A DNA stretch of 64,000 nucleotides, taken from the NCBI GenBank assembly GCA_016181845.1, contig JACOYO010000001.1:33133-97132 (forward strand), read 5' to 3'. This DNA comes from Parcubacteria group bacterium. GTDB taxonomy: Bacteria > Patescibacteriota > Minisyncoccia > Phycocordibacterales > 21-14-all-47-15. A program made the position numbers and the translations under genes. Below the pieces are notes generated by a model, which saw nothing but the letters and a program-made list of their open reading frames with translations, searched no databases and had not been told where the DNA came from. Positions 23,142 through 51,586 of the stretch are shown here, piece by piece; the first letter of the stretch is position 1; every line of letters starts with the position of its first letter.

Positions 23142-24506
23142 TTAACTAAACAAATGTCCTATTCGTTCCCGAATCCTATCAAGATTTCTTAGCGCGTCAA
23201 ATAAGGTATTGCTGAAAAGAAGCAGTGTAACAAGAGCCAAGACTTTCAATTCCCTGCGACCGCGCCATAAATCAAACAACCCATAACTGGCAAATATCGC
23301 AAAAAACGGATACACAAGAAATCGATACCTCGTTTCCACAATGATACCAATAATAGCGATGGGCATCATCACAAGCATCCAGAGTAACATTTTTGCGCGT
23401 TCTTTTTCATCCGCGGAAAGCTCTTTCATACGATAGATGCCCCAAAAACCGAAAATAAAAAGAATGGCGGAGTAAACCGCAGACAATGTAAGTGTTAAGG
23501 CCTTGCTCATTCCTTCCAGATGAAACCAAAATCCGGTCGGGCGAGCGAAACTAAAATAAATGGAAATTCGCTTAAAAGTAATTTCCAAAAATTCTATCGG
23601 ACGAGAGAAAATAAAGCCAAGCGATTCTTTGAGCGCGAGCTTATTCCCTTCTATCCTTCCCTCTTTCATAAATATTTCATTACCCTCGTACGGCTCAAGT
23701 TCGCCAGAGGCACCAGGATGATTTCCGGCAAGCAAATCATACCCAAACGCAAGGTTGGTCGGGATAAAGGTGTGATACATGCGATAATTGCGGACCGTCC
23801 ACGGAGTAAAGACAAGCGTAAGTACGATAAGAAACACGCCTAGTTCTTTCCAAAATTTTTGCCAGATAAAATAGCCCGCCAGCGGAAAGATTAAAAAAAG
23901 CGCCGGAGTGCGCACCAAGACCGCAAAACCAAATACCACGGCCAACAACATCAACAACCATATTGATGCATTGGCATTTCTTTCGATATATCGAAAGAAA
24001 ATATATACGCTTAAAATAATAAAAAATATCCCGAGTGTCTCTGTCATGAGCATGCCGTTTATCGTAATTAAATCGGGAGAAAAGCCGATAAGCCCAGCGG
24101 CAACGAGCCCGATTGGCAAGCTCCAATGTTCTTTGAATATTTGTTTGCTGATAAGAAAAATAAAAAACGCAGAAAATGCCGACAAAAGCGCATTAATAAT
24201 CCACACGACTTGATAGTGATGCCCGAACAAATAATAAACGCCAGCCAAAAAAAATTCATAACCGGGTCCGACGCGCAAAATGGCCAAATCTTCATCGTAT
24301 GAAAGATCCGCCTGCTCTTTATATCCGTTCCCCTGCACAAGATTCCATGCAATGTTGTCATATGCTCGCGCGTCAACCGCAGGTGCAATGTAAAAATAAA
24401 GAGAGTACGCATAGGCAACCAGAAAAATACCGAGAACGAGAAGGCCGATTATTTTTTTCTCCATATCGTCTTGATACAAACGAGAGAACATATTCTGCAA
24501 GGACAT
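23142..24506 (-). CDS. GT-C-family membrane glycosyltransferase (PMT/ArnT-like, GT39/GT83-type)
   Basis: ~13 transmembrane helices. N-terminal loop motif DARAYDNIAWNLVQGNGY resembles the first extracytoplasmic loop of PMT/ArnT enzymes. Sits next to a DPM1-like GT2. Confidence 0.55.
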   Translation of the reverse strand: MSLQNMFSRLYQDDMEKKIIGLLVLGIFLVAYAYSLYFYIAPAVDARAYDNIAWNLVQGNGYKEQADLSYDEDLAILRVGPGYEFFLAGVYYLFGHHYQVVWIINALLSAFSAFFIFLISKQIFKEHWSLPIGLVAAGLIGFSPDLITINGMLMTETLGIFFIILSVYIFFRYIERNANASIWLLMLLAVVFGFAVLVRTPALFLIFPLAGYFIWQKFWKELGVFLIVLTLVFTPWTVRNYRMYHTFIPTNLAFGYDLLAGNHPGASGELEPYEGNEIFMKEGRIEGNKLALKESLGFIFSRPIEFLEITFKRISIYFSFARPTGFWFHLEGMSKALTLTLSAVYSAILFIFGFWGIYRMKELSADEKERAKMLLWMLVMMPIAIIGIIVETRYRFLVYPFFAIFASYGLFDLWRGRRELKVLALVTLLLFSNTLFDALRNLDRIRERIGHLFS

Positions 24507-25650: not shown

Positions 25651-26289
25651 ATGTCATTTATCAAAACATTCGCGAAACTCCCCATTGATTTAGGTCAGGG
25701 ACAATTCCGCCACACCACAAAAGCAAAGCTCATCGCTTTTGACAGCGTCCCCAAAAATACAGCAGATCATACGGCACTTGATGTCGGATGCGGTGACGGA
25801 TATTGGTCTGAAAAATTAAAAAGTATCGGATATCGAACAACTTCGGTCGACATGAACAGACCATACCCGAATATAGACTGGGAAACCCCATACAAAGATA
25901 CTATTTTTACAGACCTCAATAAGAAACTGCCGTTTCAAGACGCTTCTTTTGATTTGGTTTGGTGTTCGGAAGTCATTGAACACCTGGAAAATCCTCAAGC
26001 GATAATAAAAGAAATCGAGCGCGTGATAAAACCCGGGGGAAAATATATTCTTACTACGCCAAACTCATTTTTTTGGCTTCATTATTTTTTGAAACTGTTC
26101 GGGTTCTCCCATAAAGATTGGCAAAATGAGGGACATAAATATTTCTTTCATATAGATGATATACAAAGTCTTTTCCCAAAGGCCAGTATTTACGGTTATT
26201 TCCCTTATCTAATATTAAAATTCAAAATTAAACACTTGATAGGCCTCCTCTCTCCAAACTTTGTTATCGTTGTGGAAAAAGCAAAATGA
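25651..26289 (+). CDS. Class I SAM-dependent methyltransferase
   Basis: LDVGCGDGYWS motif I, DLVWCSEVIEHL motif; ~210 aa. Overlaps the downstream GT-C gene start. Confidence 0.7.
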   Translation: MSFIKTFAKLPIDLGQGQFRHTTKAKLIAFDSVPKNTADHTALDVGCGDGYWSEKLKSIGYRTTSVDMNRPYPNIDWETPYKDTIFTDLNKKLPFQDASFDLVWCSEVIEHLENPQAIIKEIERVIKPGGKYILTTPNSFFWLHYFLKLFGFSHKDWQNEGHKYFFHIDDIQSLFPKASIYGYFPYLILKFKIKHLIGLLSPNFVIVVEKAK

Positions 26290-27770
26290 TTGAACGATTC
26301 AATACCATATTTGAAAAAGCAACCGGACAATACCTGCTTCAACTTACGTCAGGCAAAGCGGGCCTCTGGATTTCCGTATTGTTCATTTTTGTATTTATAA
26401 ATATTTTTTCCCTCTCGACACTTACGACAAAACCGGCGCTTTGGTATGACGAGGGAATAAATATAGAATTGGCGCGAAATTTTTCCGAATTTGGGAAACT
26501 TGATTTGATGGTTCGGCCGATGCAATTCTCCGGACAAGGCGCGCTTATCGGCTCAACTGGATACACAACCACGATTCCTCTTGCGGCATTTTTTAAACTG
26601 TTTGGCTTTGGACTGTCGCAGGCGAGAGTGTACATGCTCCTCTGGATGAACATCATGCTTTTCTGCTTATTTTATTTCGCGAGAAAAAAATGGGGCGTGA
26701 GTGTCGCTCTCGCCACATTATTTCTAGTCGCCACTTTCGCTCCTTTTTTTGGAAATGGCCGCAGTGTTATGGGAGAAATCCCCGGTTTTACGTTTTTGCT
26801 GCTTTCTCTTATTTGGTATACAGAAAAAAACAATCTATTTGGTGCGGGCTTTTTTCTTGGCTTGGCTGTGATAAGCAAGCCGTCCGTGTATGTTTTCTTT
26901 ATCCCAGCTTTTGTCATCTTGTTATTATTTGAAAAAAAAGATTTCTTTGCGCGCATTATTCGATCGGGTGCTGGCGCGGTATTGCCGCTTCTCATTTGGG
27001 CAGGCATATATCCCGACACTGCATTCTCCCCATCAACATGGAAAAGTTTGAGCGATCATGCGAGCAACCCATACGAGCAGGCGCAGGTCACTTCTTTAAT
27101 AAACATAAAAAATAATTTGGCGGCATTTTTTGAATCGCCAACCTTACTTTATTTCTTGCTGTTTGCAATCATAATCATAAGCGCCCTATACATAAAAAGA
27201 GATTTTTATGAACAGAACAAACAGATTATCATACTCACCGCCTCATACGGAATATTGGAATTTTTTTACTATTTAAAAAGCCTGGGCTATCTTCGGTATC
27301 TTATCGCCCTGCAATTCTTAATCTTCATACTCCTTGTCCCCGCTCTAGAGACGCTCGCGAGACGCTTCGCTCCTCCGCCATACGGCAGTATTGCCATACG
27401 CGCGTGCATAGCGATACTCGTATTGTTCCAAGCCGCGTATCTTTTTTCGGGGGCAAAACTTTTTTATTCGGACAGTTCACAAAAAACATTTCAATATCTG
27501 GAAAACAATTTTGAGGGGCAAATAATCGGTATCGTCAACCTGCCAACAATAGCAAGCCTTATTCCCTCAACCCAAAGAATGCAGACTATTTCTACATATG
27601 GGCTTGACAATGTGGGGGAACATCCTTTATCGCTTGTGGCGGAGGCCTTGCCGCCAGTTATTGTTTTTGAAAATAATCATGTCTTTGAACCCCAATACGC
27701 CGAGGTGTTAAAACAACATTATTTGCCGGAGAAAACAATCGGAAATATTTTGATATATCGAAAATATTAA
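26286..27770 (+). CDS. GT-C-family membrane glycosyltransferase (PMT-like)
   Basis: 12 or more transmembrane helices. First-loop motif LWYDEGINIELARNF (DE motif typical of GT39/PMT-like enzymes). Convergent with and overlapping a DPM1-like GT2. Confidence 0.5.
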   Translation: MIERFNTIFEKATGQYLLQLTSGKAGLWISVLFIFVFINIFSLSTLTTKPALWYDEGINIELARNFSEFGKLDLMVRPMQFSGQGALIGSTGYTTTIPLAAFFKLFGFGLSQARVYMLLWMNIMLFCLFYFARKKWGVSVALATLFLVATFAPFFGNGRSVMGEIPGFTFLLLSLIWYTEKNNLFGAGFFLGLAVISKPSVYVFFIPAFVILLLFEKKDFFARIIRSGAGAVLPLLIWAGIYPDTAFSPSTWKSLSDHASNPYEQAQVTSLINIKNNLAAFFESPTLLYFLLFAIIIISALYIKRDFYEQNKQIIILTASYGILEFFYYLKSLGYLRYLIALQFLIFILLVPALETLARRFAPPPYGSIAIRACIAILVLFQAAYLFSGAKLFYSDSSQKTFQYLENNFEGQIIGIVNLPTIASLIPSTQRMQTISTYGLDNVGEHPLSLVAEALPPVIVFENNHVFEPQYAEVLKQHYLPEKTIGNILIYRKY

Positions 27771-28483
27771 AAGTAAATATCAAAAAAAATCACGACGAAG
27801 TCTTTTATAATCCTCGGGATGTGCCCGAAGATACCGTAGACACTTTTTCTTTTCTCTTCACAAGTAACCGGAATTTCTTTTATTTTTAGGCCGGCACGAT
27901 TCGCGCGAATCAAAAATTCAGTATCAAGCAAATCGCGATGAGTCTTGCATTGGCTGAACACGGGGGCCGCTTTCTCTCGGTTAAAAATCTTGATGCCGTG
28001 GGTATCAGTCCCCGGATACCGAAAAAGCGCCCGCAACGCGAAATTAAATATTCGGTTGAGCATCCTTCTTGAAAGCGGCCTTAGGTCATGGGCTCCCGGC
28101 ATAGATTTAGAGCAAACGACAATATCGCTCTGCTCCTTTTCAAAAGAAACAAGCGCTTTTTTTACTGCATCCATGTCCCAAAAATCAATATTGAACACGG
28201 CAATATATGCGCCACTGCTTTTCAAAACACCTTGTTTAAGGGCGTTCCCGTATCCGGCAACCGGCAGAGATATGAGGCGTATTTGCGAATATAGAGAGGC
28301 AAGTTCTTTTGCAATCAATACCGTATTGTCAGTGCTGCCGTTTTCCACTAAAATAATTTCGTAGTCAGCACGGTACAAAAAAGTCTCCACCGCCACGATA
28401 ATCTTTTCAATTTCGGTTTTTAAAATTTCTTGCTCGTTATAAACGGGAATAACGATGGATAATTTCTTAGTGTCATGTTTCAT
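27767..28483 (-). CDS. GT2 polyprenyl-phosphate sugar synthase (DPM1-like)
   Basis: LSIVIPVYNEQE ... LVENGSTDNT ... DxD motifs; ~238 aa. Confidence 0.8.
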   Translation of the reverse strand: MKHDTKKLSIVIPVYNEQEILKTEIEKIIVAVETFLYRADYEIILVENGSTDNTVLIAKELASLYSQIRLISLPVAGYGNALKQGVLKSSGAYIAVFNIDFWDMDAVKKALVSFEKEQSDIVVCSKSMPGAHDLRPLSRRMLNRIFNFALRALFRYPGTDTHGIKIFNREKAAPVFSQCKTHRDLLDTEFLIRANRAGLKIKEIPVTCEEKRKSVYGIFGHIPRIIKDFVVIFFDIYF

Positions 28484-28511: not shown

Positions 28512-29561
28512 TCATTTTTCTCTATTGAGAAGGTCGGTCATTTTTTTTATGACAGAGACGCCGCTGTGGTTTTGTATCACCAGAGACTGAAGCTCGCGGA
28601 GTTCATATTTTGAGGCCGTCTTGATTTCTAATATTTTTTGGACAATATAATCTGCGTTGGTATTCCGCAAAAGATGTTTTTCTGGCAACATTGCAAAAAA
28701 AGCTTCGTTTGAAGTGAGCACGTTAACCCCTGACGCCATCGCTTCAAGGACCGCCTTATCAAGACTTCCGGTTTCGCTCAAATTGATAAAGAGATCGCTT
28801 TTTTGATAAAAGGAGTGGATATCGGAATACGAAACCGCGCCAACAAAAAACACGCTGTCATCTATCCCCTTCGCTTGTATCTCTTTTTTTAATCGAATGA
28901 AATAGTCATAATCCGCATTTGTAATCGGCGCCCCGACAATTTTCATTTCAAAAGAAACGCCTTCTTTTTTCAAAAGTTCTGCCGCTTCAAGCATCATGTG
29001 AATATTTTTTGCCGGCGTAATTCTACTGACAGAAAGAATATTCAATTTTTCGTGCGGCCACTTGTCCACCGGATGAAAACGCTCCGTATCAATCCCATGT
29101 CCTACTACATGCACCTTGTCGCTTTTCAAACGAAAACTTTCTTTTGAGGCGGTAAAGATAATATCGGATAATTTTTCCGCGACGCGCAATTTCATATCAA
29201 CCTGTTTGTGCGTATACCATAGCGCAATTTTTTTAGACAAAAGTTTCCAAAACACACCTCCGAGCAAAATATATATCGGATTCATGTGCACGAAGACCGT
29301 ATCGTAATTTTTTTTCTCATTCCAGATATATCTATAAAACCTTGCGATATATCGAAAGGTTTTTATTACAGTGGCACCAGCAAATTCTTCTTTGCCGAGC
29401 GATAATACGGAAACATTCTGCGGCAAATGGTATTTGCCTTTTTGCAAACAAATAACCGTAACTTTTTCAGCATGCTTGGCAAATTCTTCAATCCACCGGA
29501 CAAAAAAACCGAGGTTGTCGTCCTGTTCGTCCACTTTTTGAGTTATGATAAGCAGTCGCAT
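28512..29561 (-). CDS. Glycosyltransferase family 1 (GT4); contains the 28-bp palindrome, copy A, in frame
   Basis: C-terminal GT-B domain (GSLDKAVLEAMASGVNVL); ~349 aa. The palindrome encodes KTFRYIARFY. Confidence 0.8.
   Translation of the reverse strand: MRLLIITQKVDEQDDNLGFFVRWIEEFAKHAEKVTVICLQKGKYHLPQNVSVLSLGKEEFAGATVIKTFRYIARFYRYIWNEKKNYDTVFVHMNPIYILLGGVFWKLLSKKIALWYTHKQVDMKLRVAEKLSDIIFTASKESFRLKSDKVHVVGHGIDTERFHPVDKWPHEKLNILSVSRITPAKNIHMMLEAAELLKKEGVSFEMKIVGAPITNADYDYFIRLKKEIQAKGIDDSVFFVGAVSYSDIHSFYQKSDLFINLSETGSLDKAVLEAMASGVNVLTSNEAFFAMLPEKHLLRNTNADYIVQKILEIKTASKYELRELQSLVIQNHSGVSVIKKMTDLLNREK
29334..29366. repeat. 28-bp near-perfect palindrome AAAACCTTGCGATATATCGAAAGGTTTT (copy A), inside the GT4 CDS
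   Basis: Same palindrome at 42936-42966 and 49363-49393. Confidence 0.85.
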
Positions 29562-29567
29562 AAAAAA

Positions 29568-30677
29568 TTACAAATAAATAGCGCATGACTCCCACTGTTT
29601 TTTATATACCCGAAGATACTCTTCTTTTGAAATTTCATTTGATGCGCGTGTGAATCGCCCGCCGCTTGAAAGAGCCGCTGACAACGAGTCCGCGAGGCAG
29701 ATGGAATTGCCGACAGAGCATATAAAAACACCATCTCCTGAAACGACATCTCCCGCAATCCCCACATCAGTGGTTACTATGGGCAACCCTGCCCTATACG
29801 CCTCCACAAGCGAGAGCCCGTATCCTTCATAAAATGATGTGTGAAGATACACGTCGGCGGCGGCATAATAAGATGCAATTTCTTTTTGAGAGCCGACAAA
29901 TATAGCGCTGTCTTCCAATTTGAGATTTGAGATTTGGGACTTGAGATTTTTTCTCTCGCTTCCGTCACCAACAACAAGAAGCCCAGCTTTGGGATATGTT
30001 TTAATAATTTTTTCAAACACCTCAATCGCACGGGCAACATTTTTTTCCGGCTCAAGTCGCGAGACAACAAGAACGATTTTTTCAAACTGTGGAAACTCTG
30101 CGCGGACACGGCTGCCGTCCGCATTTTTGAATTTTTGAACATCGGTGAAAATCGGCAGTACGGCAATCGGCGCATTGGTGAATCCACTGATAGATTTTTT
30201 AATTCGCTCCGACACCACGCGGACACAATCGGCTTTGGGCAATAAAAATTTCGCAACCATCACCCGAATTTTATTTTTGATATTTTCCGCGGCAAAATAG
30301 TGGCTCATGAAATCGGTATGTACCTGCAGCTCAAGCCGCGCGCCAAGAGCGCGCGAGACGCGCCATCCGGCAAAACCGGTTTCAAACGGGTTTTGGCAAG
30401 TAACCAGGAAATCATGAGTCATGAATAATGAATCATGATTGATGCGCTTCGCGATTTTGTATGCGTCAAAAATATACAGCCAGCGGCTCAAAGAATTTGT
30501 GGAATAAATGAAAACATTGTCTGAAATCTTGATTCTTGATTCTTGATTCTTGATTCTTGCGCGGAAAATTATAATATGCAATTCTTCACACAATCTTCCA
30601 TACTCAATCATCCTCGCGCGCACCGCCGAGTCTTTTTCAAAAATTTTTGAATCAGTTGATAGCATTAGTACTCTCAT
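29568..30677 (-). CDS. Glycosyltransferase family 1 (GT4), paralogue 1 of a tandem pair, with two heptanucleotide tracts
   Basis: GT-B C-terminal domain (YGLSLVEAYRAGLPIVTT). Shares the peptide ERKNLKSQISNLKLE with the next gene. Confidence 0.8.
   Translation of the reverse strand: MRVLMLSTDSKIFEKDSAVRARMIEYGRLCEELHIIIFRARIKNQESRIKISDNVFIYSTNSLSRWLYIFDAYKIAKRINHDSLFMTHDFLVTCQNPFETGFAGWRVSRALGARLELQVHTDFMSHYFAAENIKNKIRVMVAKFLLPKADCVRVVSERIKKSISGFTNAPIAVLPIFTDVQKFKNADGSRVRAEFPQFEKIVLVVSRLEPEKNVARAIEVFEKIIKTYPKAGLLVVGDGSERKNLKSQISNLKLEDSAIFVGSQKEIASYYAAADVYLHTSFYEGYGLSLVEAYRAGLPIVTTDVGIAGDVVSGDGVFICSVGNSICLADSLSAALSSGGRFTRASNEISKEEYLRVYKKQWESCAIYL
29918..29952. repeat. Heptanucleotide repeat (GAGATTT)n, interrupted (gagattt gagattt gggactt gagattt), in GT4 paralogue 1
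   Basis: Coding strand AAATCTC units encode ..KSQISNLK.. in frame. One unit is degenerated by synonymous changes. Confidence 0.8.
30528..30560. repeat. Heptanucleotide repeat (TCTTGAT)x4.7 in GT4 paralogue 1
   Basis: Four perfect units plus a partial unit. Coding strand (AGAATCA)n encodes RIKNQESRIKIS. Confidence 0.85.
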
Positions 30678-31837
30678 AGTTGTTTAAAAAATTGAGTTAA
30701 ATTCTCAAGCATTTTTTCTTTTGAAAATCCCGCCGCTTTTTCACGCGCCGATTTTTCAAAACGCTGGCGCGCCACTGTCACATCCGCCAGTATTTCAATG
30801 ATTGCTTCTGCAAGAGCTTTTTTATCTTGATGCGTCACCAACCGCCCTGAAACGCTGTCTTCAATCAATTCAGAATTTCCGCCTACACGGGTCGTAACCA
30901 CGGGCACTCCCAAAGCCATCGCCTCAAGAATAGTGTGCGACAACCCTTCGTATCCGGTATTTAGCACGAATACATCCGCCACCATTAAATAAAGCATAGT
31001 GTCGTCGTGCGACAATTGCCCGATTAAGAATACGCTATTCTCCAATTTGAGATTTGAGATTTGAGATTTGAGATTCTTTCTTTCCGGCCCATCTCCGATA
31101 ATGTAGAGTTTTGCCTGCGGATATTTTTTTACTATTTCAGAAAACATTTCTATTAATGTTTCAAATCCTTTCCACGAAACAAGCCGCCCGATAGACACTA
31201 GTATCTCTCCTGGCCAGTCCCGCCCTTCAACGCGAGCCGGGGCGGACAAAAGAAGTCTCGCGCGAGCTTCATCGTGAGTGATATTTTGTTTCGGTAATTC
31301 AAACGCGTTATAGATAACTTCTACTTTTTCTGGAGCAACCCCCCATCCGTACACAATAATTTTTTTCAAATATTCGCTCGGCACAACTATCTTGTCCGCA
31401 TAGCGCGCCACATATTTTTGTATAGACCTACGCATTTCAATCCCAAGAGAATATTTTTTTCCCTGAAATTCATCCAACAAATCATATTCCTGATTTCTGA
31501 TTCCTGATTCCTGATTCACATATTCTTCCCACGCGCGGTCTCCTACAATTTTTACCACAAATTTTTTACCAAGTATTTTGGCGGCGCACAATGCGGGCAA
31601 GCCGACACCGAGCGGGTCTTGCGCGAAAATAATACCCGCCTCGGCTCCAGCGCGAAGCAGTTTGAAAAAATAAAAAAGATGTTTTACGCCAAAAGGCCAT
31701 TTTTTTACATCGCTCAATTTCACCACGGCAACCTGAAACCCACGGAGCGAGAGCTCGCGTTCCAAAAGAGCGGTGTATGTGGCCGGTCCGCCGATTTCGG
31801 GCGGATAGAGCGGTGTAGCAATAAGTATTTTTTGCAT
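30674..31837 (-). CDS. Glycosyltransferase family 1 (GT4), paralogue 2 of the tandem pair, with two heptanucleotide tracts
   Basis: GT-B C-terminal domain (YEGLSHTILEAMALGVPVVTT). Start taken at MQKILIATPLYPPEIGG; the ORF track extends to 31870 through a palindromic site. Confidence 0.8.
   Translation of the reverse strand: MQKILIATPLYPPEIGGPATYTALLERELSLRGFQVAVVKLSDVKKWPFGVKHLFYFFKLLRAGAEAGIIFAQDPLGVGLPALCAAKILGKKFVVKIVGDRAWEEYVNQESGIRNQEYDLLDEFQGKKYSLGIEMRRSIQKYVARYADKIVVPSEYLKKIIVYGWGVAPEKVEVIYNAFELPKQNITHDEARARLLLSAPARVEGRDWPGEILVSIGRLVSWKGFETLIEMFSEIVKKYPQAKLYIIGDGPERKNLKSQISNLKLENSVFLIGQLSHDDTMLYLMVADVFVLNTGYEGLSHTILEAMALGVPVVTTRVGGNSELIEDSVSGRLVTHQDKKALAEAIIEILADVTVARQRFEKSAREKAAGFSKEKMLENLTQFFKQL
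31049..31076. repeat. Heptanucleotide repeat (GAGATTT)x3 plus GAGATTC in GT4 paralogue 2
   Basis: Four tandem units. Coding strand (AAATCTC)n encodes NLKSQISNLK in frame. Confidence 0.85.
31489..31516. repeat. Heptanucleotide repeat (CCTGATT)x4, one imperfect, in GT4 paralogue 2
   Basis: Reads cctgatt tctgatt cctgatt cctgatt. Coding strand (GAATCAG)n encodes NQESGIRNQE. Confidence 0.8.
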
Positions 31838-31846
31838 AAGTTTATA

Positions 31847-31869
31847 TGTTGGACATCGGATGTCCAACA
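31847..31869. promoter_or_regulatory. 23-bp perfect palindrome TGTTGGACATC-G-GATGTCCAACA, ~10 nt upstream of the GT4 paralogue 2 start codon
   Basis: Perfect dyad symmetry. Positioned over the expected RBS / 5'UTR. Confidence 0.5.
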
Positions 31870-31902
31870 ATATCGTATGTTTTACTTAACCATCTTCAAC
31901 TT

Positions 31903-31937
31903 CCAAACTGTTGGACATCCGATGTCCAACAGTTTGG
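31903..31937. promoter_or_regulatory. 35-bp perfect palindrome CCAAACTGTTGGACATC-C-GATGTCCAACAGTTTGG, second copy of the same dyad core
   Basis: Shares the core TGTTGGACATC N GATGTCCAACA with the site 34 bp downstream. Abuts the E2 repeat. Confidence 0.5.
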
Positions 31938-32168
31938 AAGAAACTCGCTCTCTATCATAGTTTTTGAGAGACATTGCGGAGCCCACAGGCGAGCATAGCA
32001 AATCCTGCTCGCAAGCAGGTTCTGAAGCGAATATTTGAAGCTTCAGAAAACCTTTTGAGAATTTTTGCAAGTTTTGCGAAGTAAAAAATCCAAAAGGTGT
32101 ACTAATCCTGTAAGGATTATGCGCGTCTATCAAAAACTCATGATGAGGAAGAGTTTCGTAATTCATAG
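31938..32168. repeat. MITE-like intergenic repeat element, copy E2 (longest copy, ~230 bp)
   Basis: 5' module CTATCATAGTTTTTGAGAGACATTGCGGAGCCCACAGGCGAGCATAGCA. Hairpin AATCCTGCT-cgca-AGCAGGTT. About 100 bp of extra internal hairpins. 3' module ATGCGCGTCTATCAAAAACTCATGATGAGGAAGAGTTTCGTAATTCATAG. The 94-aa ORF 31882-32166 within it is treated as spurious. Confidence 0.7.
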
Positions 32169-39182: not shown

Positions 39183-39234
39183 TATCTCTATAGTATCGTA
39201 ATAGACCGATAAGAGCGAGCGGTTAATGTGTTTG

Positions 39235-39362
39235 AATTACGAAACTCGCCCTGAATCATAGTTTTTGAGAGACATTGCGGAGCCCACAGGCAAGCATAGC
39301 ATCCGCCCTGGGCGGAATGCGTGTCTTTCAAAAACCAACGATGAAGCAGAGAAATACAACCG
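39235..39362. repeat. MITE-like intergenic repeat element, copy E3
   Basis: GAATTACGAAACTCGCCCTGAATCATAGTTTTTGAGAGACATTGCGGAGCCCACAGG 5' module. GC-rich hairpin CATCCGCCC-tgg-GCGGAATG. 3' module ATGCGTGTCTTTCAAAAAC..ATGAAGCAGAG. The 94-aa ORF 39188-39472 is treated as spurious. Confidence 0.7.
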
Positions 39363-39365
39363 TTC

Positions 39366-40709
39366 TTAAGAAATAAACGTATACGCTTGTCCGCCTTTGC
39401 CGGCGCGTCCGGTGCGGCCGATGCGGTGGATATAATCTTCGCGCGTGTTCGGCTGGTCAAAATTGATGACATGGCTTACGTTTGGAATATCAAGCCCGCG
39501 AGCCGCCACATCCGTTGCGACCAAGATATTCACCTTGCCATCTCGAAATGCTCTGAGCGCGCGATCGCGCTGCGGCTGAGATTTATTGCCGTGAATCGCC
39601 TCCGCTTTGAAACCTTCTTTTGAGAGTGTGTCAGCCAATTTTTGCACACTCCGTTTCATTTCTCCAAAAATGAGCACCTTTTCAAAGGCACTATGCGCTA
39701 GCATTTCTTTTAACTTGGCAAATTTCTCTTCTTTTGAGTGCGCGCGAATGACGTCCTGCGCTATGTGCTCGCTTCGCACGTTTGACGTCACCGATACCGT
39801 AACCGGTTCATTCAATATTTTTTCAAGTATTTTTTTAATGTCCGGAGTAATGGTCGCGCTAAAGCAAAGCGACTGGCGATTTTTTGGAATCTTGCCGATT
39901 AAAAATTCAATATCTTTGATGAAACCCATATCAAGCATGCGGTCAAATTCGTCAAGCACGAGAATAGACACGGAATCAAGCGAAAGCGCTTTTCGGTTTA
40001 CTAAATCTTTGAGCCGGCCCGGTGTGCCGATGATGACATGCGGATGCCGAGTCAATTCTCTCATTTGCTTGCCGATAGGCATCCCGCCGACACAGAGCGC
40101 CGAGTAGACATGGAGACCGTGCGCAAATTTTGTGAGCTCGTCGTTGATTTGTCCGGCAAGTTCACGGGTTGGTGCCATGATGAGCGCCGTCTCCCCGCTC
40201 TTCCGCGCGTGCAATTTTTGAATAATGGGCAACGCGAAAGCCGCCGTCTTTCCACTGCCGGTATTGGCGAGCCCGATGACATCTTTTTGTTTAAGAATAT
40301 AATGGATTGCTTCGTCTTGAATACGCGTCGGCGTCGTGAAGCCGATGCGAGTGAGATTTCCTTCAAGGGTTTTGTTCAGCCCAAAATCGGCAAACAGATG
40401 TTTCGGTTTGTATTCGCCCATGGCAACATGCACCGGCGTTTTATTGATAAACGTATCGGGATGAATATATTTCCCTCTTGATTGCGGTCTGCCAAAATGA
40501 GCGCCTCCTCGGTGTGGACGTGGCGCATAGCGGCCGTGTCCGCCGTGTCCGTGCGAAGATGATTGCGGCTTCCCATGAAAATGAGAATCCTGGCGCGAAG
40601 ATGATTTGCCGCCATGAGGACTTCCGTGACTTCCGTGAGAAGAATGCGAGGAATGAGATGATGTGCGCGAAGAACGACGTCCCCCACGTTTAAATGAGTT
40701 ATGATACAT
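39366..40709 (-). CDS. DEAD-box ATP-dependent RNA helicase with an N-terminal His/Ser/Gly-rich low-complexity extension
   Basis: Q-motif region, ANTGSGKTAAF (motif I), DEFD (motif II; DEAD variant), SAT, HRIGRTGRAG (motif VI). Confidence 0.85.
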   Translation of the reverse strand: MYHNSFKRGGRRSSRTSSHSSHSSHGSHGSPHGGKSSSRQDSHFHGKPQSSSHGHGGHGRYAPRPHRGGAHFGRPQSRGKYIHPDTFINKTPVHVAMGEYKPKHLFADFGLNKTLEGNLTRIGFTTPTRIQDEAIHYILKQKDVIGLANTGSGKTAAFALPIIQKLHARKSGETALIMAPTRELAGQINDELTKFAHGLHVYSALCVGGMPIGKQMRELTRHPHVIIGTPGRLKDLVNRKALSLDSVSILVLDEFDRMLDMGFIKDIEFLIGKIPKNRQSLCFSATITPDIKKILEKILNEPVTVSVTSNVRSEHIAQDVIRAHSKEEKFAKLKEMLAHSAFEKVLIFGEMKRSVQKLADTLSKEGFKAEAIHGNKSQPQRDRALRAFRDGKVNILVATDVAARGLDIPNVSHVINFDQPNTREDYIHRIGRTGRAGKGGQAYTFIS

Positions 40710-42935: not shown

Positions 42936-42966
42936 TAAAAACCTTTCGATATATCGAAAGGTTTTA
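42936..42966. repeat. 28-bp perfect palindrome AAAACCTTTCGATATATCGAAAGGTTTT (copy B), intergenic
   Basis: Perfect dyad. Copies at 29334-29366 and 49363-49393 differ only by T to G at one position. Confidence 0.85.
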
Positions 42967-43002
42967 TGGGTAAAAAATTTGCTACGCGAAAGCAAAGTGA
43001 CT

Positions 43003-44672
43003 TTATAAAAACAGACGCGCGAGACGTAAATCATCAAATGAGTACTCGCCCTTGAGTTTGCGGTGCGCGGGAGTTAATTTCATGTCTTTTGTCGCGGCAA
43101 ATGCCTCTTTTATTTTTTTGAAATCGCGCGCATCCGGCCTGAATCTGATTAAATCGCAATCTGGAAAAAGTGCTTTTATTTTTTCCAAATGTGAAATAAT
43201 TGTCCCCGGCGTCATGCCGCGCTCCTTCGCGATTGCTTGCAAAGAAAGTCCTCGCGCCACATACTCACGTGTCTTTTCGTAAGTTGAGACGCGCTGTTTC
43301 GGCGATTCTTTTTCTTTTTTGTGTTTCTCTCTGTTTTTCGCGATTTCTTTTTTATTGAGCGTCCCTCCGCAGGCGATAATAAATTTTTCATGCATCGCTT
43401 CAAGCTCTTTTTCTGAAAATTGCCGGAGTGAGCGCTCCCATTTGGAAGAATCAGCGAGCAATCTTTTATCAAGTACCGCGACATCGGGATACACGGCAAG
43501 CGCCATGTCGTTCATGCCGCGAAGAAAAAGCCCCGAAAGCGAGCGGAGCCGCGAGAGCGCCACATATCCCTGCCCTGGCACAAACGCTTGCGAGAGATCA
43601 ATCTCCGCCGCGTCCATGCTCATCCCCTGACTCTTATGAATCGTTATCGCCCATGCGAGCCGAAGCGGTAATTGGCTCACGGACGCGAGCGTTTTTTCGT
43701 CTTCTTTGATTTCCCATTCCGCTGAAGAAACAGCAATGTCCCTCCCGTCAAACGTCCGCACGACTGGCTGCTCGTCGTCAAAATCTGTCACCGTACCAAG
43801 CGTGCCGTTATTGTATCCTCCTTCTATATTATTTTTTACAAACATAACGACCGCGTCTTTTTTTAATTTCAGCGTTTCCGGAGCCAAAATATTTTTTTTC
43901 AATGTTTCTACCAAATGCAGCTTTCCTTTCGAGCGCATCTCGTACGTTTTCTCCTCGCCCGAAAGTTTACCCAATTCAATTTCGTTTTCGGCATCAACAT
44001 CGGCGTTGTGCGTATAAAGCCGCGTCGGAAGCGCACCGCTCTTCCTCTCTTTATATCCTGAAGCCATGAGAATTTTTTTGGTGTGCGAAGACACGGCGCC
44101 ACCACGTATTTCATTCAAAAGATTTTCCAGCACCGCGTCTCCGTGCCGAAATTGTTCATCAAGATAACAGACGCGGATGTCCGACGCTTTCCACGCGTCT
44201 GATACATGAATAAACTCCACCGCCATATTGCCGCGCGTAATTGGCGGCAGCTGAAAAAAATCGCCAGCAAGCACAATCTGCATCCCACCAAATGGTTTGT
44301 CACTTCGCTTCATCTCTCGGCACACGCGCTCCACCGTATCAAACAAGCGCGGAGAAAGCATGGACACTTCATCAATAACCAATATTTTTGTCTTTTCAAA
44401 CCGCTTCCACAAATATTCTTTTTGCGCGAGCGCTTCCAACTCATATTGCGAGAGCGTATCTCGGACGCCAACGCCCGACCACGAATGGAGCGTCACCCCG
44501 CCCAAATGAGTCGCGGCAATGCCGGTGGATGCCGTTACCGCTATCGGTATGCCGCGCTCTTTGATATATGAAATATATTTGTTCAGGACGTGCGTCTTCC
44601 CGCTGCCGGCGGCACCGGTAAGGTAAACATTTTTCCCCGCTTTAAGCACCTCAAGCGCTTGCGTCTGTTTCA
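43003..44672 (-). CDS. PIF1/RecD-like superfamily-1 DNA helicase with a C-terminal helix-turn-helix domain
   Basis: Start taken at MKQTQALEVLKAGKNVYLTGAAGSGKTH (Walker A). The ORF track extends further upstream. C-terminal ~100 aa has an HTH-like segment LSLQAIAKERGMTPGTIISHLEK. Confidence 0.7.
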
Positions 44673-44768
44673 TAAAAAATATTGTAGCACAACATGGTTG
44701 CTTTAATCTCCAAAAAGACTTTCGGTTTATCACCTTGACATGGCAAGTGATTAGTATACACTTGTAAA

Positions 44769-44858
44769 TACAAATGGCCTTCGGGCTCGGTTCATCGCAA
44801 GATGAACCAGACAAGTTCAAAAACGCGATTATAGCATAGCTTTAATCGCGTTTTTGAT
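44769..44858 (+). ncRNA. Candidate small RNA (~90 nt) with UUCG- and GCAA-capped hairpins and an intrinsic terminator
   Basis: Putative promoter TTGACA (44735-40), N16, TACACT (44757-62). Hairpins GGCC-UUCG-GGCU (44776-87), GGUUCAUC-GCAA-GAUGAACC (44789-808) and AAAAACGCGAUUA ... UAAUCGCGUUUUU (44819-55), followed by a U-run. No ORF. Confidence 0.35.
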
Positions 44859-49022: not shown

Positions 49023-49192
49023 AATTGTTTAGAGTGTAGCAGAAGACTTGCATCTGCGCGAGGTTGCAAAAAGTTGCATACGCAACTTGAAGGCTTAGCC
49101 TCCAAGAGCACACAGCGACAAACTATGCCAGTATACTGGCATAGTTTCATTTGTTGCAGAACGACACAAAAAAAAGATAGTATACAAACACA

Positions 49193-49981
49193 ATGCAAGA
49201 AAAGAGAAGGGAAAAGAAAAAAATGCGGTGGAGAAAACAAAAACGCCAAGCCAGCTCTTTTTGGGAAAAAGAATATAAGAGCGGCGAGCATTTGGCTCTC
49301 TCGACAAGCGCGAGCGAAGACCTGCAAAAATTCACGCGGTGGCTTTCGCGCGAAAATGATAATAAAACCTTGCGATATATCGAAAGGTTTTTACCAGTAA
49401 ATAAATACTCGACGACAAAAGCATCCGTTGCTGATTTAGGCACCGGCAATGGGAGAAATCTTATATACCTTGCAGAAACGTTCGGCATGAAAGGCACTGG
49501 ATTTGATATTTCCCGCGAGGCGATTGAACAGGCAAAAATCGCGAGCAAAAACAAAAATTTGCCGCTTGAATTTTTCGTGCGCTCAATCGCGGAGCCAATT
49601 CCACTGCCCGATAATTCACAAGACATCGTCCTTGATATGATGACCTCGCATTTTTTAAACAACTCCGAGCGAGCGATCCTCCTTTCCGAAATCGCGCGCA
49701 TTTTGAAACCGGGCGGCTTTCTTTTTTTCAAAACATTTCTTCTTGATGAGGATATTCACGCGGCGCGTCTTTTGCGCGAGCACCCAGCGGGAGAACCGGG
49801 CTCATACATTCACCCTGAAATCGGCAAAGCCGAGCATGTATTCACCGAAAATGAAATCGTTGCTCTCTTTTCTCACTATTTCACGATACGAAAAATTACC
49901 AAATCGCACCGCCACAAAATCAAAGGACATGCCGCCAAACGCAGAAGCATTTCCGTATACGCAGAAAAAGAAATCCGTTAA
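49193..49981 (+). CDS. Class I SAM-dependent methyltransferase; contains the 28-bp palindrome, copy C, in frame
   Basis: ADLGTGNGRNLIYLAE motif I, ILKPGGFLFFKTF. Start uncertain (Lys/Arg-rich N-terminus). The palindrome encodes KTLRYIERFL. Confidence 0.65.
   Translation: MQEKRREKKKMRWRKQKRQASSFWEKEYKSGEHLALSTSASEDLQKFTRWLSRENDNKTLRYIERFLPVNKYSTTKASVADLGTGNGRNLIYLAETFGMKGTGFDISREAIEQAKIASKNKNLPLEFFVRSIAEPIPLPDNSQDIVLDMMTSHFLNNSERAILLSEIARILKPGGFLFFKTFLLDEDIHAARLLREHPAGEPGSYIHPEIGKAEHVFTENEIVALFSHYFTIRKITKSHRHKIKGHAAKRRSISVYAEKEIR
49363..49393. repeat. 28-bp near-perfect palindrome AAAACCTTGCGATATATCGAAAGGTTTT (copy C), inside the methyltransferase CDS
   Basis: Identical to copy A. Flanking sequence is unrelated. 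Confidence 0.85.
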
Positions 49982-51517: not shown

Positions 51518-51586
51518 ATTTTAAAACATAAAAACCCCCATGCAATAAAATCGCATGGGGGTTTAAACTATCTAAAAAAGAACAAA

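Follow-up and report, generated by a model that had tools for sequence, protein, structure and literature searches.

A palindromic repeat dispersed through the Patescibacteria, with a TrpR-family protein as its probable partner

Introduction

Why should one 28-bp palindrome recur at three places in a short stretch of a bacterial genome, with unrelated sequence around it each time? We consider this question for 64,000 nucleotides of a Parcubacteria group bacterium (assembly GCA_016181845.1, contig JACOYO010000001.1, positions 33,133 to 97,132 of the forward strand), the whole of which we call the window. The palindrome, AAAACCTT[T/G]CGATATATCGAAAGGTTTT, with the perfect form AAAACCTTTCGATATATCGAAAGGTTTT, is real, non-random and biologically meaningful; we read it as part of a TrpR-family protein/operator pair with a dispersal like that of repetitive extragenic palindromic (REP) sequences. 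In particular, it is probably the cognate site of a TrpR/HisR(YerC)-family protein specific to the candidate phyla radiation (CPR, or Patescibacteria), a protein that would dock there as a symmetric dimer and control its own expression.

A large share of bacterial diversity belongs to the CPR, whose genomes are tiny and encode very few regulators, and which are almost wholly uncultivated. Next to nothing is known of how their transcription is controlled or punctuated. Here a protein family of at least 1654 clusters comes with a DNA site that can be predicted exactly and that recurs at tens of gene ends in a genome. The two form a testable protein-DNA pair, and the apparent one-residue/one-base rule that we describe below (P, T or S in the protein with A, T or G in the site) can be tested directly. 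The repeat is also an example of how short palindromes originate and spread, even in frame into enzymes, without an obvious transposase, and it explains odd inserts of 10-12 residues in CPR proteins together with some contig breaks in metagenome-assembled genomes (MAGs).

Results

A repeat family of the Patescibacteria

Three copies of the 28-mer lie in the window (29336-29363, 42938-42965 and 49364-49391), where the number expected by chance is 0, and shuffles that preserve dinucleotide composition yield 0 matches in 100 trials. The copy at 42938-42965 is perfect, and the other two carry the same single T>G change on the plus strand. When the copies are oriented, a 32-nt unit, TAAAAACCTTTCGATATATCG[A/C]AAGGTTTTAT, is common to all three; it reads forward at 42936-42967 and in reverse at 29334-29365 and 49362-49393. 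Past about 32 nt the flanks of the three sites bear no relation to one another. The 12-nt centre, with at most one mismatch allowed, is found five times in the window, compared with 0.2 expected. A first-pass annotation of this DNA had described the three palindromes with their one T to G difference, had held that they could not be due to chance, and had called them point-like with unrelated flanks. These statements all stand, and no conserved repeat larger than the 32-nt unit surrounds the 28-mer within the window. The restriction-site-like palindromes that the same annotation saw nested in the core are merely the conserved centre of the motif.

The family extends far beyond this genome. We scanned the 18-nt core CTTKCGATATATCGMAAG in one genome per species and obtained at least 109 loci. 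Among the core matches listed, the great majority come from Patescibacteria, often with several loci per MAG, and the CPR groups represented are Saccharibacteria, Paceibacteria/Parcubacteria, Wolfebacteria, Zambryskibacteria, Kaiserbacteria and Taylorbacteria. The five positions beside the core are conserved in the CPR loci (AAAAC...GTTTT), as they are in the window. In the outer flanks the sequence varies from locus to locus while the two sides stay complementary, which results in perfect palindromes of 22-76 bp (median 32). In most loci labelled as non-CPR, by comparison, palindromy ends at 18-20 nt, with few exceptions, and such core matches look like chance. Extended palindromy of 26-38 bp does occur in four loci labelled Oscillospiraceae, Tenacibaculum, Patiriisocius and Gammaproteobacteria (L029, L030, L044 and L047), where the contigs may come from CPR and have been mis-binned, or the palindrome may have arisen independently.

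The complementarity of the arms can be quantified. Positions -6 to -11 are variable in sequence and paired in 40-71% of sites, against a background of about 27%. An ungapped alignment of 88 sites has a covariation score of 0.387, compared with 0.139 for column shuffles (0 of 500 as high) and 0.12-0.15 for slid registers. G-T and A-C mismatches are equally frequent in the arms, and there is thus no sign of selection on an RNA read from one strand. Rfam contains no match to the window at the gathering threshold, and for eight loci it returns only sub-threshold matches to generic long hairpins (microRNA precursors, plastid 3' untranslated regions). A phage or mobile-element origin was rejected, since only 5 core matches occur in 2.9 million viral contigs.

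The family, then, is a dispersed palindromic repeat found throughout the Patescibacteria, and the window's 28-mer is its local form; the centre, CGATATATCG, hardly varies, and the arms differ by lineage. A search of Rfam and of the literature, whose cover leaves out most subscription journals, returned no account of the CGATATATCG motif or of its pairing with a protein, and in the literature searched no paper brings YerC or the Trp repressor together with Patescibacteria or Saccharibacteria; the one paper of relevance concerns HisR (YerC) in Firmicutes. Copies of the palindrome also stand at contig ends of fragmented MAGs (L046 at position 14, L080 at position 11, L071 and L090), and two Wolfebacteria contigs start with the same palindrome and flank; the repeat apparently breaks short-read assemblies.

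The repeat flanks a gene of the TrpR family

The loci were examined as 8-kb stretches. In several of them, two palindromes 456-541 bp apart enclose an open reading frame (ORF) of about 133 aa that starts MPH[IV]SK. By tblastn, this ORF lies directly beside the palindrome in 10 loci that had been found via the palindrome, and has it on both sides in 7. Three of the encoded proteins match Pfam PF01371 (Trp_repressor) with scores of 30.9, 34.8 and 31.5 bits, where the gathering threshold is 27, and the same family is precomputed for most of the 120 listed homologs. The CPR protein does not reach the thresholds of the NCBIfam equivalog models for TrpR and YerC, and hence it represents a distinct subfamily. 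When an AlphaFold2 model of the protein (predicted local distance difference test score 85.3) is compared with the PDB by Foldseek, the top 36 structures are all TrpR or TrpR-like (3kor, 6f7f, 1trr, 3frw, 3g1c); the best probabilities are 0.99-1.0 and the target-normalised template modelling scores 0.53-0.68, with E-values of only about 0.1-2. The family comprises at least 1654 protein clusters, all CPR-named, whose labels say only YerC, Trp family regulator, helix-turn-helix (HTH) or hypothetical. Its members are about 128-150 aa long and have the recognition helix S-x-S-T-[VI]-x-R.

Conversely, we selected 80 metagenome loci solely by a profile of the protein. A perfect palindrome is present 0-40 nt upstream of the ATG, 0-70 nt past the stop codon, or in both places, in about 65 of the 80. 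Its centre is almost always CGATATATCG, with smaller groups that have TGATATATCA or CAGTATACTG, and the arms beside the centre are lineage-specific (for example CATA-, CTTA-, CTTT-, CTTG-, GTG- and CTA-). Five of these loci have two upstream copies, 55-80 bp apart. For the same TrpR-like gene, the upstream and downstream palindromes do not differ significantly in length (medians 24 and 26 bp, Wilcoxon p = 0.09). Thus an HTH gene of the TrpR family, whose product is a candidate for the protein that binds the palindrome, is found flanked by palindromes in many CPR lineages, outside the window.

The position of the upstream copy bears on how the gene might be regulated. The centre of the palindrome is 12-29 nt from the ATG of the TrpR-like gene, and these starts have no Shine-Dalgarno sequence (L113-L192). 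In some loci a TTGACA/TTGCAT-like hexamer is found at -23 to -18 from the palindrome centre; with a -35 element there, TATCGN within the palindrome would serve as the -10, which implies an mRNA with no leader or almost none. We infer that the operator overlaps the -10 of a near-leaderless promoter. Autoregulation would then act through the upstream copy at this distance (centre to ATG) from the gene's own start, probably over the -10, with the second copy past the stop.

Housekeeping genes (thrS, glyA, prfB, rbfA, fpg, argS, smc) surround the TrpR-like gene. There is no transposase or nuclease among them, and no transposase family among the Pfam and NCBIfam matches of the palindrome-flanked gene itself.

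Several smaller observations concern this gene. Its conserved N-terminal codons, ATGCCNCAYATHTC, look like the palindrome centre. Arrays of 2-3 cognate palindromes with a spacing of about 60-90 bp occur 0.3-2 kb from it (L158 792-980, L115 2614-2691), and tRNA genes adjoin the gene and its palindromes in two loci (L032 274-355 and 1141-1343; L033 2066-2315). Wolfebacteria NORP124 has two TrpR-like paralogs (P0125 and P0169).

One helix residue tracks a base of the half-site

If the TrpR-like protein recognises the palindrome, then changes in its recognition helix may be matched by changes in the half-site. Ile79 of TrpR contacts DNA (PMC9413887), and the second residue of the helix S-X-S-T-V-x-R, residue 76, aligns with it. 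Where the helix residue is P, the base 5' of CGATA is A in 30 of 32 cases; where it is T, the base is T in 8 of 10; and where it is S, the base is G in all 5. Residue and base share 1.12 bits of mutual information, more than at any other position from 70 to 85, and 0 of 5000 permutations attain this value, although these statistics ignore kinship among the sequences. The pairing of T with T recurs among proteins that are just 25-37% identical to one another. In addition, the conserved Tyr and the S/T-T...R residues of the helix align with DNA-contacting residues of TrpR and HisR. In the model that we propose, the protein would bind its symmetric site as a dimer, with one recognition helix per half-site.

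Solo copies lie at the ends of genes

Most copies of the repeat do not accompany the TrpR-like gene. To describe their placement we use 81 CPR sites with usable context, with genes called by a longest-ORF heuristic and gaps between genes in the same loci as background. The sites comprise 25 in convergent gaps (120 such gaps in the background), 27 in tandem gaps (304) and 5 in divergent gaps (119), and the remaining 24 of the 81 are intragenic, a class to which the background does not apply. Of the five divergent sites, three coincide with the promoter of the TrpR-like gene. The sites thus strongly favour the 3' ends of genes and the gaps between convergent ones, and their preference for positions past stop codons has statistical backing. 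Core and adjacent gene end are a median of 46 nt apart, and solo copies are found mainly 10-60 nt past stop codons. Intragenic copies are slightly shorter than the others (29 versus 32 bp, p = 0.04). Away from the TrpR-like gene, 8 extra cognate copies occur in 218 kb, and the density in the window is about 1 per 16 kb; at one copy per 16-27 kb or so, a genome has tens of copies. We estimate roughly 25-60 solo copies per genome, which would be mostly just downstream of genes, especially convergent ones, and capable of forming hairpins.

The copies are flanked by an A-tract and a T-tract, with T4-T5 after the hairpin, and their stem is AT-rich. On both strands the RNA of the copy at 42938 forms a hairpin of -14 to -15.7 kcal/mol, with z-scores of -4.5 and -5.2. 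Elsewhere in the window, at 2312-2339, 44817-44857 and 51519-51577, ordinary bidirectional hairpins that resemble terminators share the AAAAAC-stem-GTTTTT frame of the palindrome family.

Could the repeat be nothing other than a plain intrinsic bidirectional terminator, or a structured-RNA hairpin, with no protein that recognises it? Both have an A-tract, a palindromic stem and a T-tract just past the stop codon, at 10-60 nt, with flanks like those of the window's ordinary terminators; both form stable hairpins on either strand; and the stem of the repeat covaries. An intrinsic terminator, however, has a G+C-rich hairpin with a U-tract behind it, and its stem needs no fixed sequence. The CPR stem, by contrast, is AT-rich, perfectly palindromic and fixed in sequence across phyla, with 16 of the 18 core positions invariant, though the search pattern fixed these; and CGATATATCG recurs in loci picked by the protein alone. 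Moreover, the equal frequency of G-T and A-C mismatches is no signature of RNA wobble pairing, no Rfam family corresponds to the repeat, copies stand directly before the ATG of one gene family, at times as a tandem array, a terminator within an ORF would do harm, and the half-site varies together with a helix residue of the protein. We consider this explanation very improbable.

A second alternative retains the protein and assigns it another task, namely chromosome organisation or segregation in place of transcription, as in ParB-parS, SlmA and its binding site (SBS), MatP-matS, and Noc and its binding site (NBS). The repeat resembles the ParB, SlmA and MatP systems in that a highly conserved palindrome is present in tens of copies, often in genes, and is paired with a small DNA-binding protein that is dimeric (here by prediction). 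The density of one copy per 16-27 kb or so, the 24 of 81 sites within genes, the very high conservation across phyla, the lack of a functional theme among adjacent genes and the sites that flank the TrpR-like gene itself would all fit such a role. The protein family and the sequence are different, however; the strong bias towards 3' ends and convergent gaps is not known from parS, SBS and matS; and the A- and T-tract flanks with hairpin-extending arms, which are not known in those systems either, point to a role at the level of the transcript or of a cruciform. Chromosome organisation is thus an unlikely primary function.

Under the reading that we prefer, in which the TrpR-like protein binds the repeat as an operator, the solo copies are most likely bidirectional terminator or roadblock sites that are reinforced or controlled by the bound protein. 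Judging by their sequence and placement, they would most plausibly serve as terminators or roadblocks at gene ends or else as chromosome-structuring sites.

Copies in the window and how they arose

The copies in the window are mostly intragenic, and the first-pass annotation, which missed this, is to be corrected on this point: two full copies and a 24-bp copy sit in genes, in frame. Among the full copies only the perfect one (forward unit at 42936-42967, with the 28-bp palindrome at 42938-42965) is intergenic. It follows the stop codon of a PIF1-like helicase gene (43003-44820, minus strand) at 38 nt and precedes the start of a DUF47/PHO4 operon (42602) by 336 nt. The copy at 29334-29365, a reverse unit with the T>G change, is located in a GT4 glycosyltransferase ORF (28512-29561, minus strand), where it is read as KTFRYIARFY. 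The copy at 49362-49393, a reverse unit with the same T>G change, is located in the ORF of a class I S-adenosylmethionine (SAM)-methyltransferase (MTase; 49193-49981, plus strand), where it is read as KTLRYIERFL. A perfect 24-bp palindrome that has the 18-nt core, TTTCTTTCGATATATCGAAAGAAA, occupies 23977-24000 in a PMT_2 (ArnT-like) glycosyltransferase ORF (23142-24506, minus strand) and is read as FFRYIERN. Finally, a degenerate copy, ATTTTGATATATCGAAAA, is found at 27747-27764, where two convergent genes, for PMT_2 (26286-27770, plus strand) and GT2 (27767-28483, minus strand), overlap at their 3' ends; the sequence of this copy is identical in a Lloydbacteria relative (L110). The unit of the window, written TAAAAACCTTTCGATATATCGMAAGGTTTTAT, has no stop codon in any frame, and for this reason the in-frame copies within ORFs (3 of the 5 in the window) are tolerated.

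All three intragenic copies in the window are read in one frame, and one might therefore suppose that they encode a peptide motif (KTFRYIERF) shared by unrelated enzymes. A 28-bp unit is also like dif, and a related supposition, part of which was entertained in the first-pass annotation, is that the palindrome is the target or footprint of a homing nuclease, an Xer/dif-type recombinase or a restriction system. However, one copy in the window lies between genes, as do most of those found elsewhere. The peptide K-T-F/L-R-Y-I-E/A-R-F was rejected on two further counts, namely that the frame of intragenic copies in other genomes is mostly FDISK and that GT4 and MTase orthologs exist without the peptide. 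No nuclease or recombinase gene is associated with the repeat, and viral contigs contain almost no matches (5 in 2.9 million). The dif site is present in a single copy per replicon, and the consensus of parS is TGTTNCACGTGAAACA; with 3-5 copies in 64 kb, many copies per genome and a sequence unrelated to parS, the palindrome is neither a dif/Xer site nor parS. We find this group of explanations hardly credible. The LexA box, CGAAC-N4-GTTCG, was likewise rejected on inspection: two lineages have GTTCG-ATATAT-CGAAC, which is a different arrangement.

Comparison with orthologous genes allows us to follow the history of individual copies. The closest relative of the window's GT4 protein comes from a Candidatus Lloydbacteria MAG. 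The GT4 copy is present in the orthologs P0002, P0003 and P0005, while P0004, P0006, P0007, P0008 and all distant GT4 homologs are 5 aa shorter and lack the left arm. The left arm is thus a 15-nt gain, patchy among orthologs; the patchiness in both ortholog subclades implies repeated gain or loss. One ortholog (L111) has the right arm only, TATATCGCAAGGTTTTAT (TAT ATC GCA AGG TTT TAT), as ordinary coding sequence for Y-I-A-R-F-Y.

The MTase segment is lacking in every aligned ortholog, including five at 81-86% identity. Compared with the DNA of L199 and L200, AAT-GAG/CAG-AAT has become AAT-[AAAACCTTGCGATATATCGAAAGGTTTT TACCAGTA]-AAT; that is, 36 nt stand in place of one codon, for a net gain of 33 nt and 11 aa. 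The MTase copy is a recent in-frame insertion, unique to the source genome. In the case of PMT_2, the ortholog in L112 (76% amino acid identity) reads TTT TTT CGT TTG GTT GAG AGT where the window reads TTC TTT CGA TAT ATC GAA AGA. The two align at the same length with no indel, and so the 24-bp copy arose by substitutions.

The GT4 copy of the relative L110 has the perfect form, while the GT4 and MTase copies of the window have in common a derived base and matching asymmetric ends of 2 nt. Such a pattern speaks for copying or conversion within the genome and not for the independent evolution of binding sites. New copies of the repeat are made by copy-paste, or by conversion, of DNA. Some intragenic sites do persist: the pairs L036/L052 and L019/L037 keep them in place in orthologs that are 48-64% identical. 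No mobilising enzyme was found. A Tc1-like miniature inverted-repeat transposable element with TA duplication finds no support: the unit can be read as TA-27 nt-TA, but the net 33-nt insertion in the MTase gave no definable duplicated target.

These histories raise the possibility that the repeat is a selfish mini-palindrome, like REP sequences or Rickettsia palindromic elements (RPEs), which spreads on its own, has the TrpR-like protein as a partner for mobilisation, taming or copy control, and is for the most part functionless for its host. The oriented 32-nt identity within the genome, the recent in-frame insertion in the MTase, the patchy gain and loss at one GT4 site in both subclades and the derived base common to two copies all speak for it. 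So do the TrpR-like gene between two copies, as REP-associated tyrosine transposase (RAYT) genes lie between REPs, the accumulation of copies where insertion is least harmful (in convergent gaps, and as a unit stop-free in all frames) and the copies at contig ends of fragmented MAGs (L046, L071 and L080). Yet the partner is a small HTH protein without a recognisable catalytic domain, its gene stands amid housekeeping genes with no transposase nearby, and no target-site duplication is definable. Some intragenic sites, furthermore, are kept in orthologs of 48-64% identity, and CPR lineages as far apart as phyla retain CGATATATCG and the AAAAC...GTTTT arms, which suggests long-term selection and not parasite turnover. 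On balance we regard a purely selfish element as rather unlikely.

Discussion

Relation to known systems

The closest precedents for the protein are the TrpR/HisR repressors. HisR (YerC/YecD) of the Firmicutes belongs to this group, whose palindromic operators of about 20 bp are found upstream of amino-acid genes, and HisR is often preceded by its own site; the HisR motif is cacTTTAnnnnnnTAAAgtg and the TrpR motif TGTACTnGTnnACnAGTACA (PMC9413887). The CPR protein is like them in its Pfam family (PF01371), its all-helical fold, its palindromic site, the copy of that site before its own gene and the way in which lineage-specific motif variants track the protein. It differs in length, by an additional 30-50 aa, and has a conserved N-terminus (MPH[IV]SK) and further helices at the C-terminal end. 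The motif, xxxCGATATATCGxxx, is different as well, and its conserved unit spans 26-32 bp compared with the operators of about 20 bp. Sites are located on both sides of the gene, tens of solo copies lie at 3' ends or in ORFs, and the repeat spreads by copy-paste. There is no amino-acid regulon: at the sites surveyed we found no amino-acid biosynthesis or transport theme common to the genes whose starts are adjacent.

The dispersal of the repeat is REP-like, in that it involves near-identical 32-nt copies, a gene bracketed by two copies, and copy-paste. As in REP sequences, the bacterial interspersed mosaic elements (BIMEs) built from them and their RAYT partners, palindromes of about 30 nt are dispersed after genes and between convergent genes, copies are near-identical within a genome, and repeat and protein co-vary between lineages. 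However, the CPR partner is an HTH protein of the TrpR family and not an HUH/Y1 transposase, so the CPR repeat is not a member of the REP/RAYT group. It also lacks a conserved 5' GTAG, and its palindromes are perfect and loopless, with a centre that is kept across phyla instead of being species-specific and with about 30% of copies intragenic.

RPEs are about 100-150 bp long and are found in Rickettsia only, and they are not known to have a cognate protein. The CPR repeat is like them where it lies in frame in coding genes and adds a short peptide (11 aa in the MTase, 5 aa in GT4). It is not an RPE, for the CPR unit is about 32 nt long, most of its copies are intergenic, and it is associated with a protein of DNA-binding type.

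Weighing the proposed protein-site pair

Among the candidates of the first-pass annotation, a site for a dimeric DNA-binding protein has turned out to be largely right and is the best supported, as judged from the palindromes that flank a TrpR-family gene and from the covariation of helix and half-site. The idea of a self-propagating palindrome holds in part: the MTase insertion and the patchy GT4 copy speak for copy-paste, whereas no mobilising enzyme was found and the TrpR-like gene stands among housekeeping genes. The idea of a nuclease or recombinase target finds no support: no gene of that kind accompanies the repeat, and viral contigs contain only the 5 matches given above.

Besides the kinship among the sequences mentioned above, a number of observations weigh against the protein-site pair that we propose. 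The 64-kb window itself contains no TrpR-like gene by tblastn. Convergent and 3'-end placement is atypical for the operators of a repressor, and the genes with a start beside a site show no functional theme (they include, for example, RNase Y-like, PrfB, KsgA, glycosylase and ABC transporter genes). A simple scan for consensus terminators does not call the window copies. The intragenic copies of the window are evolutionarily labile, and individual copies therefore need not be functional. A dimeric HTH protein does not account for the complementarity of flanks past about +/-13 bp, and the 26-32 nt common to copies within a genome exceed the usual contact of a TrpR-type dimer. Copying templated by a hairpin (quasi-palindrome or template-switch copying) would account for the over-long palindromy and for the mechanism of copying together.

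These considerations lead us to a broader scenario, which we offer as possible, if doubtful in its entirety. The Patescibacteria would possess a lineage-wide, co-evolving pair of a TrpR-fold protein and a REP-like palindrome. Bound sites would mark the ends of genes, as protein-dependent bidirectional terminators or insulators, or would structure the chromosome; and the repeat would spread by a transposase-free, hairpin or template-switch form of copy-paste, in frame into genes, growing outward into longer perfect palindromes.

Other repeats in the window

A second perfect 28-bp palindrome, AAACTATGCCAGTATACTGGCATAGTTT, lies at 49120-49147, in the divergent region between the genes for a SpoU methylase and the methyltransferase. 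Its centre, CCAGTATACTGG, is that of the palindromes that flank a distinct subgroup of TrpR-like genes (L133, L152, L158 and L161), in which the recognition helix is S-[QHPS]-[TVA]-T-[IV]-[AS]-[KR]. A near-identical sequence is found upstream of the MTase ortholog in L200 (position 69). The palindrome at 49120-49147 suggests that the source genome may have a second pair of paralog and site.

The window contains no tRNA genes. It does contain an ORF of about 94 aa in three copies, at 233-531, 31882-32166 (repeats 31940-32150) and 39188-39472 (repeats 39241-39348), with DNA stretches that are 93-100% identical and with no match in Pfam. Beside one of these copies are the 23-nt palindromes TGTTGGACATCGGATGTCCAACA and TGTTGGACATCCGATGTCCAACA, at 31847-31869 and 31909-31931. 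An 82-nt repeat with tandem GAGATTT heptads (TTTGAGATTTGAGATTTGGGACTTGAGATT) occurs at 29893-29974 and 31020-31101, in two adjacent paralogous GT4 genes.

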